A stretch of 64,000 nucleotides of DNA from assembly GCA_963771355.1 (NCBI GenBank), contig CAVYTA010000005.1:256001-320000 (forward strand), written 5' to 3'. A model generated the notes under the pieces. The model did no database searches and was not told the origin of the DNA. It saw only the letters and a list, made by a program, of their open reading frames with translations. The DNA is from an uncultured Candidatus Rokubacteria bacterium (GTDB lineage: Bacteria > Methylomirabilota > Methylomirabilia > Rokubacteriales > CSP1-6). The position numbers and the translations under genes were made by a program. Numbering within the stretch: position 1 is the stretch's first letter; each line of letters starts with the position of its first letter. This document shows, piece after piece, positions 35,200 to 37,791 of the stretch.

Positions 35200-36612
35200 A
35201 TGGCGACGGCGAACGGCATGGCCCGCGAGGCGCTGGGCTATCTGGACGGGCATCTCGGCGACTGGAAGCGGGTCCTGGTGAACCTCTGCCGCATCCCGAG
35301 CATGTCGGCGTCGGGGTTCCCGGTGGAGCAGGTCCGTCGCTCCGCCCAGGCGGTGGCGCAGGCCCTGACCGACGCCGGCGTCGAGAACGTCCAGGTGCTC
35401 ACCATTCCCGGCGTGCATCCGTATGTGTACGGGGACTGGCTGCACCGGCCGGACGCGCCCACCGTGCTCCTCTACGGGCATCACGACGTCCAGCCGCCGG
35501 GCCGCGAGGACAAATGGCTCTCGCCCGCCTTCGAGCCCACCGAGCGTGACGGCCGCCTCTACGGCCGGGGGACCGCCGACGACAAGGGCGGCGTCATGGC
35601 GCACGTGGCCGCGGTGGGGTCGTATCTCCGCTCGGCGGGGACCTTGCCGGTGAACGTGAAGTTCATCATCGAGGGCGAGGAGGAGATCGGCTCGATGAAC
35701 CTGGGCCGCTTCCTCGAGCAGTACAAGAAGAGCGTGGCGGCGGACTTCATCGTGCTCACCGACACCGGCAACTACGACGTCGGGCATCCCGCGCTCACGT
35801 ATCAGCTCCGCGGCCTCTGCGAGCTCGACGTGGAAGTGCAGGCGCTGCGCCAGCCCCTGCACAGCGGCTACAGCGGCCCGGTGCCGGATCCGGTGCAGAT
35901 CCTCTGCGCGCTCATCGCCGACCTGCGCACCCGGGACGGGGCGCTGAATGTCCCCGGCCTCTACAAGAAGGTCGCCCGGCCCAGCGCCAAGCAGCTCGCG
36001 CGCATCCGCTCCTTGCCTCTCAGCGAGGCCAAGTTCAAGAAGGAGTCCGGCATGCTGCCGGGCGTGCAGCTCTGGGGCGAGAAGAAGTTCTCGCTGCTGG
36101 AACAGATGTGGACGCGCCCCGCGCTCACCGTCATCGCGCTGGAGGCGCGGCCGTTCCTCGGCTCCTCCAACCAGATCATCGAGGCGGCGCGCGCCCGGCT
36201 CTCACTGCGCACGGTGCCCGGCATGGATGCGCGCGAGGCCGGCCGCCTCATCGTCAAGAAGCTGACCCGCAAGCCGCCCTTCGGCGCCAAGGTCACCGCC
36301 AAGGTCAATGGGACCACGCCGTGGTGGACCACTGATCCCGAGGGCCCCGCCTTCGAGGCGGCGCGGCGCGCGCTCCGGTCGGGCTTCGGGAAGGCCACCG
36401 CGATGGTCGGGTCCGGCGGCACCATCGGATTCGTCCAGCCCTTCGCCGATCTGCTCAAGGGCGCGCCCTGCATCCTCATGGGCGTCATCGATCCCTATAC
36501 CCAGGCGCATTCCGAGAACGAGAGCCTGCACCTGGGCGACTGGGTCAAGGCCATGCGCTCCACCATCCACCTCTACGACGAGCTGGCGCAGGTGCCGGCG
36601 GGAAAGCGCTGA
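35200..36612 (+). CDS. M20 family metallo-dipeptidase/deacylase
   Basis: YGHHDVQP, GRGTADDKG, EGEEEIGS, AHSENESL. Confidence 0.9.
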   Translation: MATANGMAREALGYLDGHLGDWKRVLVNLCRIPSMSASGFPVEQVRRSAQAVAQALTDAGVENVQVLTIPGVHPYVYGDWLHRPDAPTVLLYGHHDVQPPGREDKWLSPAFEPTERDGRLYGRGTADDKGGVMAHVAAVGSYLRSAGTLPVNVKFIIEGEEEIGSMNLGRFLEQYKKSVAADFIVLTDTGNYDVGHPALTYQLRGLCELDVEVQALRQPLHSGYSGPVPDPVQILCALIADLRTRDGALNVPGLYKKVARPSAKQLARIRSLPLSEAKFKKESGMLPGVQLWGEKKFSLLEQMWTRPALTVIALEARPFLGSSNQIIEAARARLSLRTVPGMDAREAGRLIVKKLTRKPPFGAKVTAKVNGTTPWWTTDPEGPAFEAARRALRSGFGKATAMVGSGGTIGFVQPFADLLKGAPCILMGVIDPYTQAHSENESLHLGDWVKAMRSTIHLYDELAQVPAGKR

Positions 36613-36619
36613 GGACGGC

Positions 36620-36676
36620 ATGGTTCGGATACTCCAGTGTTCCTGGTGGCGGCCGCCGGTATCGGCGGCCCCCTAG
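36620..36676 (+). CDS. Trp-Trp leader peptide (TrpL-like), 18 aa: MVRILQCSWWRPPVSAAP
   Basis: GAGGA RBS at 36611-36615, tandem TGG TGG at 36644-36649, located directly upstream of trpS. Confidence 0.8.
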   Translation: MVRILQCSWWRPPVSAAP

Positions 36677-36770
36677 CTCATCGCTGATCGACTGGGGCTG
36701 CCTCGAAACGGGGCGGCTCCGGGTCTCTTGAACCGCCGCCCCGGTCGGGGCCGGCGGTTCACGCATTTTC
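36651..36770 (+). promoter_or_regulatory. Attenuator with alternative hairpins and a terminator-like stem upstream of trpS
   Basis: Stems at 36651-36670, 36694-36720 and 36729-36761 (followed by CGCATTTTC). Cross-pairings 36664-36672 with 36694-36702, and 36709-36717 with 36735-36743. Confidence 0.75.
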
Positions 36771-36783
36771 GCGGAGGGAGACC

Positions 36784-37791
36784 ATGACGCGGACGATTCT
36801 CACCGGGGACCGGCCGACCGGCCCGCTCCACCTGGGCCACTATGTGGGCTCGCTGCAGCAGCGCGTGGCGCTCCAGCGCGAGTACGCGACCTACGTGCTC
36901 ATCGCCGATCTCCAGGCCCTCACCGATCACTTCGACGAGCCGGAGCAGGTACGCACCAATGTGCTGGAGGTCATGCTGGACTACCTGGCGGTGGAGCTGG
37001 ATCCCGTCGTCGCCACCATGGTGGTCCAGTCCCGGGTGCCCGAGCTGGCCGAGCTGACGATGTTTCTCCTCAACCTCGTCTCGGTGGCCCGCCTCCAGCG
37101 CAACCCCACCGTGAAGGACGAGATGCGGCAAAAGGGCTTCGAGGCGGACGTGCCTGCCGGCTTCCTCGTCTACCCGGTGAGCCAGGCCGCCGACATCGCG
37201 GCCTTCAAGGCGGATCTCGTACCGGTGGGCAGCGATCAGGTCCCGATGATCGAGCAGGCGGCGGAACTGGTGCGCCGCTTCAATCGGACGTATCCGGGCG
37301 CCGGCGGGCCGGTGCTGGTGGAGCCGGAGGCCCTGCTGGGGCCGGTGGCCCGCCTGCCGGGCACGGACGGCGACGCGAAGATGAGCAAGTCGCTGGGCAA
37401 CGTGATCAATCTGTCCGATCCCGCCGACGCGGTGGCCCGCAAAGTCCGCGGCATGTTCACCGATCCGCGCCATCTCCGCGTGGAGGACCCGGGCACGGTG
37501 GAGGGGAATCCCGTCTTCGCGTATCTGGACGCCTTCGATCCGGATCCCACGGCGGTGGCTGCCCTCAAGGCGCGCTATCGCGCGGGCGGCCTCGGGGACG
37601 TGGTGGTGAAGGCGCGCCTCACGGAGGTGCTCGACGCGTTGCTGACCCCGATCCGGCGGCGCCGCGCCGAGTGGGCGCAGGACCTGGGCGCGGTCGCCCG
37701 GCTCCTCGACGAGGGTACCGCGCGCGGCCGCGCGGTGGCGGCGGCTACACTGGCCGAGGTGCGCCGCGCGATGCGGCTCTACGGGAGCTGA
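36784..37791 (+). CDS. trpS: Tryptophanyl-tRNA synthetase (TGDRPTG, TrpRS II-like type)
   Basis: [13 protein letters not shown] (HIGH), [32 protein letters not shown]. Confidence 0.96.

Follow-up and report, generated by a model that had tools for sequence, protein, structure and literature searches.

Leader attenuators have been predicted before trpS2 of Streptomyces avermitilis, with complementary triples gGCC-rGCy-GGCC (PMC1262725), and the leader trpL2, with one Trp codon, precedes trpS in S. lividans (PMC8079986); the his operon is governed by a six-segment relay, in which the pairings AB, CD, and EF alternate with BC and DE (PMC10989985; PMC3896937); and trpL (rnTrpL) of Sinorhizobium meliloti is a leaderless attenuator of trpE(G) with four segments (SL1-SL3; PMC6614838). 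A comparable leader, with two adjacent Trp codons and six pairing segments, lies between a gene for an M20-family peptidase and a gene for an auxiliary tryptophanyl-tRNA synthetase (TrpRS; trpS) in a 64,000-nucleotide (nt) stretch of DNA from an uncultured Candidatus Rokubacteria bacterium (contig CAVYTA010000005.1, positions 256,001 to 320,000 of the forward strand), hereafter called the window, whose own positions are used throughout. An auxiliary, antibiotic-resistant TrpRS, encoded by trpRS1 of S. coelicolor, is said to be controlled by attenuation as well, to go by the title of a 2010 paper by Vecchione and Sello.

The window leader resembles the Streptomyces trpS leaders in its open reading frame (ORF) with Trp codons before a TrpRS gene and in its GC-rich repeated pairing words and, as for trpRS1, the target comes in addition to a housekeeping TrpRS; unlike them, it belongs to another phylum, and it has two Trp codons compared with one in trpL2. 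No Streptomyces locus was among those retrieved. It resembles the his attenuator in its six segments, with three predicted OFF hairpins, two shifted ON hairpins, and a ribosome over the first segment, whereas the his attenuator has His codons, a biosynthetic operon as target, a leader led by a Shine-Dalgarno (SD) sequence, and a strong U-tail. No sequence relation to the His leader and no match to an Rfam leader family were found; searches with Rfam yielded nothing at the gathering score in the window (four matches with E-values of 0.7 to 3.2 being chance) or in 10 related loci, and no T-box riboswitch match up to E 5 occurred in 36000-37500. Hence, the window leader likely works like a his-type attenuator without being a member of that family, as a case of convergence. 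The family shares with S. meliloti trpL an ORF with Trp codons, predicted to be leaderless outside the window's clade, and relatives of the window leader precede the same fused trpE(G) family (TIGR01815), whereas the window copy precedes trpS and has six segments instead of four. Overall, the leader very probably represents a real, conserved family of Trp-tRNA-sensing attenuators, and the window copy probably works by a relay of pairings 2:3 and 4:5 and by termination, as modelled below. The features concerned are the following.

35200..36612, + strand: gene for an M20-family peptidase, PRK07907 subfamily (NF005914, E 1.8e-129, above cut-off)
36611..36615, + strand: GAGGA, SD-like, overlapping the M20 stop codon; the leader ATG is 4 nt on
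36620..36676, + strand: leader ORF MVRILQCSWWRPPVSAAP*, 18 codons; orthologous ORFs hold 2-3 Trp codons
36644..36649, + strand: control codons TGG TGG; the third Trp codon of relatives is CGG here (WWR, not WWW)
36651..36658, + strand: segment 1, GCCGCC-type, predicted to lie beneath a ribosome stalled at the Trp codons
36663..36672, + strand: segment 2, GGCGGC-type, the switch, with segment 1 or 3 (or 5) as partner
36694..36705, + strand: segment 3, GCCGCC-type
36709..36720, + strand: segment 4, GGCGGC-type; 3:4 matches the hairpin that bears the U-tail in four-segment trpE(G) leaders
36729..36743, + strand: segment 5, which forms the 5' side of the last hairpin and, with its loop-side portion, pairs with segment 4
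36747..36761, + strand: segment 6, which closes the predicted terminator hairpin 5:6 as its 3' arm
36762..36770, + strand: weak U-tail with four U, where many relatives have 7-8 U of 9
36773..36777, + strand: trpS SD (GGAGG), not within the 5:6 hairpin in the window copy
36784..37791, + strand: gene for an auxiliary, TrpRS II-like tryptophanyl-tRNA synthetase (TIGR00233, above cut-off)

An earlier, sequence-only reading of this DNA had proposed a Trp leader peptide and a six-segment attenuator before trpS, which is supported by the conservation and masked folding reported here, and each sequence string it quoted was found at its place, base for base. The M20 stop codon (36610-36612) abuts the leader ORF, the stop codon of which is at 36674. 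Hairpins 1:2 (8 bp), 3:4 (12 bp with three G-U pairs), and 5:6 (14 bp with one bulged C at 36751) were all present in the minimum-energy fold of 36600-36800 (z = -3.15), none of 200 shuffled sequences being as stable. The shifted pairings of the window copy comprise 2:3 (9 bp with one G-U pair) and 4:5 (9 Watson-Crick pairs). Indeed, segments 1, 3, and 5 are of the GCCGCC type and segments 2, 4, and 6 of the GGCGGC type; because two complementary words alternate in this way, the segments can pair in several ways, among them as a 2:5 helix (6 bp in the window) that was absent from the earlier list.

The leader is conserved before orthologous trpS genes. A mini-ORF, defined as W-W or W-x-W with a start present and a stop no more than 14 codons on, was sought in the 260 nt upstream of each gene and preceded all 15 readable orthologues from genomes (one more being too short) and 27 of the 28 readable metagenome orthologues of at least 68% identity (two more being too short, and many being near-duplicates). 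It occurred before none of 11 housekeeping trpS copies, one of six genes of a third Rokubacteriales trpS class, 3/73 and 2/50 more distant homologues, and 76 of 3386 crudely called genes of the window's genome (2.2%). The leader-carrying orthologues form one clade, and counts among kin are not independent; independent support is provided by the start-codon frames and by the sequence model described below. Trp codons, spacing, and stems were all conserved before these orthologues, so that the lack of conservation named by the earlier reading as its refutation was not observed. In particular, in all 31 leaders compared the distance from the last Trp codon to the start of the segment 2 core is 12-17 nt, and segment 3 never starts less than 15 nt past the leader stop codon. 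If the ribosome is assumed to extend 12 nt beyond its A site, this spacing means that a Trp-stalled ribosome would cover segment 1 and free segment 2, and that a ribosome at the stop codon would cover segment 2. Partial leaders occur too: one locus (L086; L numbers denote loci) lacks segments 3-4 and retains 1, 2, 5, and 6, and in the sister locus L127 the leader ORF and segments 1-4 are deleted, leaving hairpin 5:6 alone between the M20 stop and trpS (at an estimated 1130-1200). In another genus, L230:17-1631 carries a frameshifted M20 gene and an intact window-type leader with no trpS after it; possibly, an M20-leader unit was transferred or trpS was lost. As a separate observation, a 507-amino-acid ORF lies on the opposite strand between M20 and the leader in L004:260-1783, the leader region of which equals that of a genome of the same genus (G242); its C-terminus is presumably HNH-like.

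The same leader was also found before a second target gene. A model built from the 31 trpS leaders, using sequence only, was run on 150 genomes and matched 24 of them. Among 13 inspected matches outside the training loci, nine stood before fused trpE(G) (including the weak L228), one followed M20 without trpS, one repeated a trpS leader at a duplicate contig end, and two were chance (E above 3e-4). Membership of the fused anthranilate synthase family TIGR01815, above cut-off, was confirmed for four inspected loci. In the window's genome, the single model match was the leader described here, and its own trpE had no match nearby; fused trpE(G), present in 37 of 251 genomes, does not occur in it. 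Upstream DNA was available for 31 of 32 trpE(G) loci, and 30 of these 31 showed a Trp-rich short frame; five had the 5:6 hairpin. In the four-segment trpE(G) leaders, it is hairpin 3:4 that carries the U-tail. A 4:5-like helix considered for these leaders appeared conserved by eye and was rejected, as it beat shuffles in just 5/25. In most of them, a conserved hairpin of anti-SD and SD follows 3:4 and an imperfect U-tail (L231-L260, L210, L223); computed costs of opening the ribosome site took no consistent direction in trpE(G) leaders.

The switch itself was modelled by ribosome-masked folding of the 31 leaders, as transcripts ending before segment 6, with a stall mask, a stop mask, or no mask. 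Segment 5 was sequestered before segment 6 emerges in 26 leaders under the stall mask, in seven under the stop mask, and in three without mask. Under the stall mask, 2:3 exceeded a probability of 0.5 in 22 leaders, 4:5 in 20, and 2:5 in six. For the window copy, stalled and with its 3' end at 36746, the relay 2:3 plus 4:5 was predicted with a probability of 0.97-1.0 and an energy of -39.1 kcal/mol, versus -31.0 kcal/mol for a nested state with 2:5 around 3:4. The relay was predicted to face a barrier of 16.0 kcal/mol towards the terminator, the nested state one of 6.5, and 3:4 alone one of 2.6, and going from 3:4 to 4:5 without segment 2 would cost 18.0 kcal/mol. At equilibrium, the full-length transcript is predicted to form 5:6 whichever mask is applied, so that the switch would have to be kinetic. 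Sequence changes were counted by script from motif anchors for 3:4, 4:5, and 5:6, as the MAFFT alignment was one column off at segment 4. The core C of segment 5 never varies; it is paired in 4:5 in all 31 leaders and in 5:6 in two. Similarly, 4:5 extends to two further positions in 27 and 24 leaders, compared with 13 and 8 for 2:5. One pair of 2:3 is C-G in 21 leaders, U-G in nine, and U-A in one, the U-A change breaking both 1:2 and 2:5.

What the data show are the sequences, their conservation, and the genomic partners; from the predicted folds and barriers, we infer the following course of translation, stalling, termination, and induction for the window copy. The mini-ORF would lie on a read-through transcript of the M20 gene, and the ribosomes translating it would be those that re-initiate after M20. 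With ample Trp-tRNA, the ribosome would proceed to the stop codon, and segment 2 would be either covered or paired with segment 1; 3:4 would then form, and 5:6, its segment 5 still available, would terminate transcription near 36765-36770, probably with leakage. A shortage of Trp-tRNA, caused by starvation or by inhibition of the housekeeping TrpRS, would instead hold the ribosome at TGG TGG, where it would mask segment 1. In that case, segment 2 would take 3 and segment 4 the loop-side part of 5, possibly after a transient 3:4 plus 2:5 state, and 5:6 could not nucleate in time, so that transcription would proceed into the spare trpS.

Several observations weigh against this course of events or qualify it. 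A first set concerns the folding: during transcript growth, 3:4 displaces 2:3 at equilibrium from 36722 to 36740, even under stall, and under the stop mask 4:5 reaches 0.65 at one cut point and 0.01-0.2 at others, so the OFF state is sensitive to assumptions. Secondly, the sequence changes supporting the relay represent few independent events. Cognate pairing exceeded non-cognate pairing (one leader per clade) in 6/9 cases for 2:3 and 5/9 for 4:5, with 8/9 for 5:6 and 4/9 for 2:5; against shuffles, in a control that ignores kinship, 2:3 gave 3/500 on percent paired and 282/500 on double-change pairs, and covariation of 1:2 did not go beyond shuffles (71/500). Thirdly, the ribosome-binding site read earlier as overlapping the M20 stop does overlap it, but its spacing to the leader ATG is just 4 nt, and it is altered to GAAGA in L115. 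Fourthly, hairpin 5:6, proposed as a terminator, has a strong GC stem, but its tail consists of four U starting 4 nt past the stem, was unlisted by a consensus terminator scan, and is the weakest of 22 U-tailed leaders (4 of 9). Lastly, the window's clade is promoterless, probably a derived state, most relatives having a predicted leaderless promoter. The relay under stall proposed by the sequence-only reading is the state predicted for the window copy by masked folding, but the compensatory evidence for 2:3 and 4:5 is thin and some leaders favour 2:5.

Those leaders bring up an unlikely alternative with the same Trp sensor and no relay, in which 3:4 is a standing hairpin, as a pause site or relic terminator, and 2:5 around it acts as the antiterminator. 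Indeed, 2:5 is the predicted stalled state in six of the 31 leaders (L136, L138, L139, L141, L140, and L094), L086 keeps 1, 2, 5, and 6 without segments 3-4, the U-tailed 3:4 of four-segment trpE(G) leaders suggests an old terminator, and 3:4 is the strongest local hairpin and the first to form. In the window, however, 2:5 has just 6 bp, is 8 kcal/mol less stable than the relay, and is 6.5 kcal/mol from the terminator; across the family it shows no cognate advantage (4/9), and it is broken by an A in segment 2 of L004.

The way in which the leader is transcribed and translated differs between the window's clade and its relatives. In all 27 leaders outside that clade, a -10-like hexamer, mostly accompanied by TG and a -35, precedes by 5-8 nt a start codon that shares its frame with the Trp codons, versus two cases of an out-of-frame start. 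As the frame is kept despite a start-to-Trp-codon length that varies from 8 to 12 codons, this suggests selection on translating the Trp codons. The leaders of the relatives are thus predicted to be leaderless transcripts from their own promoter, judged from sequence. In the window's clade, none of six loci (L001, L083, L115-L118) shows this pattern, and no promoter was found within the 3' end of the window's M20 gene by promoter scan or by the relatives' pattern. This agrees with the earlier proposal of a leader inside a read-through transcript. The leader starts of this clade lie 7-8 nt past the M20 stop or overlap it as ATGA, the latter arrangement replacing the SD-like one in L117/L118. 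The M20 gene is also directly upstream in L083/L003, L115-L118, L126, and L127. L126, which has M20 adjacent, keeps its promoter, suggesting that the promoterless state is derived. The window-clade leader seems coupled to the M20 gene, which is likely the source of both the read-through transcript and the re-initiating ribosomes.

A second alternative, considered improbable, is that the family is real and the window copy is decaying, trpS simply being co-transcribed with M20 under little Trp control. It would account for the missing promoter-like site, WWR in place of WWW, and the four-U tail of the window copy, and losses do happen, as L127 and L230 illustrate. Against it, L083 and L115-L118, the remaining five loci of the promoterless clade (with two near-duplicate pairs), keep the ORF frame, the Trp codons, and all helices, L117/L118 retain the ATGA overlap with the M20 stop, and changes of the window clade in segments 4, 5, and 6 strengthen 4:5 and keep 5:6.

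The output of the switch also varies within the family. A U-tail follows 5:6 in 22 of the 31 leaders (4-8 U in 9 nt), with 7-8 U in 12 of the 31. In eight leaders without U-tail, the trpS SD reaches into or lies beside segment 6, and in one (L140) 5:6 is lost. For five of these eight, representing two lineages, the ribosome site was computed to be 8-12 kcal/mol easier to open under stall, whereas none of the 22 U-tailed leaders showed a difference above 4.1 kcal/mol; L113, the sister of L088, keeps its U-tail, and the two differ in predicted output. Modelling indicates that some relatives bury the trpS ribosome site instead of terminating, so that this leader family can act on translation. Together with the poor U-tail of the window, this favours a third alternative, in which the window's Trp switch acts otherwise than by intrinsic termination, namely through Rho/NusA-assisted termination or access to the trpS ribosome site; it is judged quite improbable. 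Close relatives (L126, L004, and L085) keep 6-7 U, and translation control in the window copy was rejected, as its SD lies outside 5:6 and its opening cost is alike in both states (8.6 vs 8.7). Four metatranscriptome runs of one study were available as contigs only, at a depth of 2-4; among the RNA contigs listed, one covers 36622-36776 and two cross the hairpin into trpS (36638-36824 and 36730-36836), transcript ends not being visible in contigs. Finally, a chance ORF and hairpins in GC-rich DNA, which folds readily and in which the TGGTGGNGGCCGCC-like word is common (12 exact occurrences in the window's genome and 302 with one mismatch), or plain M20 terminators, are refuted by the conservation, the frame test, the second target gene, and the single model match in the genome.

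The controlled gene appears to be a spare trpS. The best PDB match of the window TrpRS was 2a4m (E 1.3e-137), TrpRS II of Deinococcus radiodurans (also 1yi8), which is the closest solved structure and likewise a second copy beside a housekeeping enzyme. The window's genome contains a second trpS, 43% identical to that of the window and taken as the housekeeping copy; the genes after it are presumably scpA/scpB-like. Of 12 other carriers, 10 likewise show a second trpS copy. The nearest named record, L003, has a 99% identical TrpRS protein. Among 251 genomes of the phylum, 16 had an orthologue of the window trpS (E 1e-100 or better), and these 16 belong to a single family; in a quick tree of 63 rows the 33 leader-clade TrpRS proteins form one side of a branch (Shimodaira-Hasegawa-like approximate likelihood ratio test, SH-aLRT, 97). 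The window TrpRS has Gln44 where the housekeeping copy has His, in the column of His77 of human mitochondrial TrpRS. That residue is equated with Bacillus His43 and reported to hydrogen-bond indolmycin (10.64898/2026.03.23.713518). Gln44 in this indolmycin-contacting column is a hint, from sequence, towards resistance of the spare TrpRS to indolmycin or chuangxinmycin. For D. radiodurans TrpRS II, a review describes a partnership with NOS and induction by radiation.

Some further observations concern other trpS genes and the surroundings. The third trpS class (L095-L101), about 53% identical and near Dehalococcoidia homologues, is the second copy in some Rokubacteriales, without this leader. 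Leaderless-looking WW leader ORFs occur in the upstream 250 nt of TrpRS II-like genes at L017, L019, and L033, from Bradyrhizobium, Deinococcus yunweiensis, and a proteobacterium, of which the first two genomes have two trpS genes and the third shows one; a TrpRS II-like homologue thus has a WW leader in D. yunweiensis too. A role of the Pro-Pro behind the Trp run in EF-P-dependent pausing appears unlikely; as PP is replaced by PL or PQ in four of 32 leaders, it is likely a by-product of the RNA helix. Elsewhere in the window (31043-32360), an MFS transporter gene is seemingly split into two overlapping frames (31043-32419 and 31590-32360), possibly by a frameshift or an assembly error.

The attenuation logic is textbook matter, a known kind of control, and no description was found of this layout in this lineage. 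The literature searched on trpS attenuation, on tryptophan attenuation in Rokubacteria, and on internal coupled attenuators did not describe the element, subscription papers, figures, and supplements being mostly outside that coverage and comparative surveys perhaps covering related leaders. The earlier reading knew of no relay-type attenuator described for the lineage; six-segment relays as such are known from the his operon. Tentatively, one Rokubacteriales family may possess a re-wirable relay of GCCGCC/GGCGGC words that expanded from four segments to six, passed between trpE(G) and the spare trpS, changed its output from termination to burial of the ribosome site at least twice by U-tail deletion and, in the window's clade, exchanged a leaderless promoter for translational coupling to a peptidase gene.

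If true, trpS would depend on both peptidase expression and Trp-tRNA shortage, and such an internal coupled attenuator could report TrpRS-inhibiting antibiotics. For this uncultured lineage, the leader provides a predicted amino-acid-sensing regulator, none having been found in print there, and it would imply transcription-translation coupling and leaderless translation. In addition, the natural variants, with four or six segments, a terminator or ribosome-site output, and an own promoter or a coupled start, may form a compact test set for changes of input and output in attenuators. Lastly, as the spare TrpRS is devoid of the indolmycin-contacting His, the leader may mark an inducible back-up enzyme.

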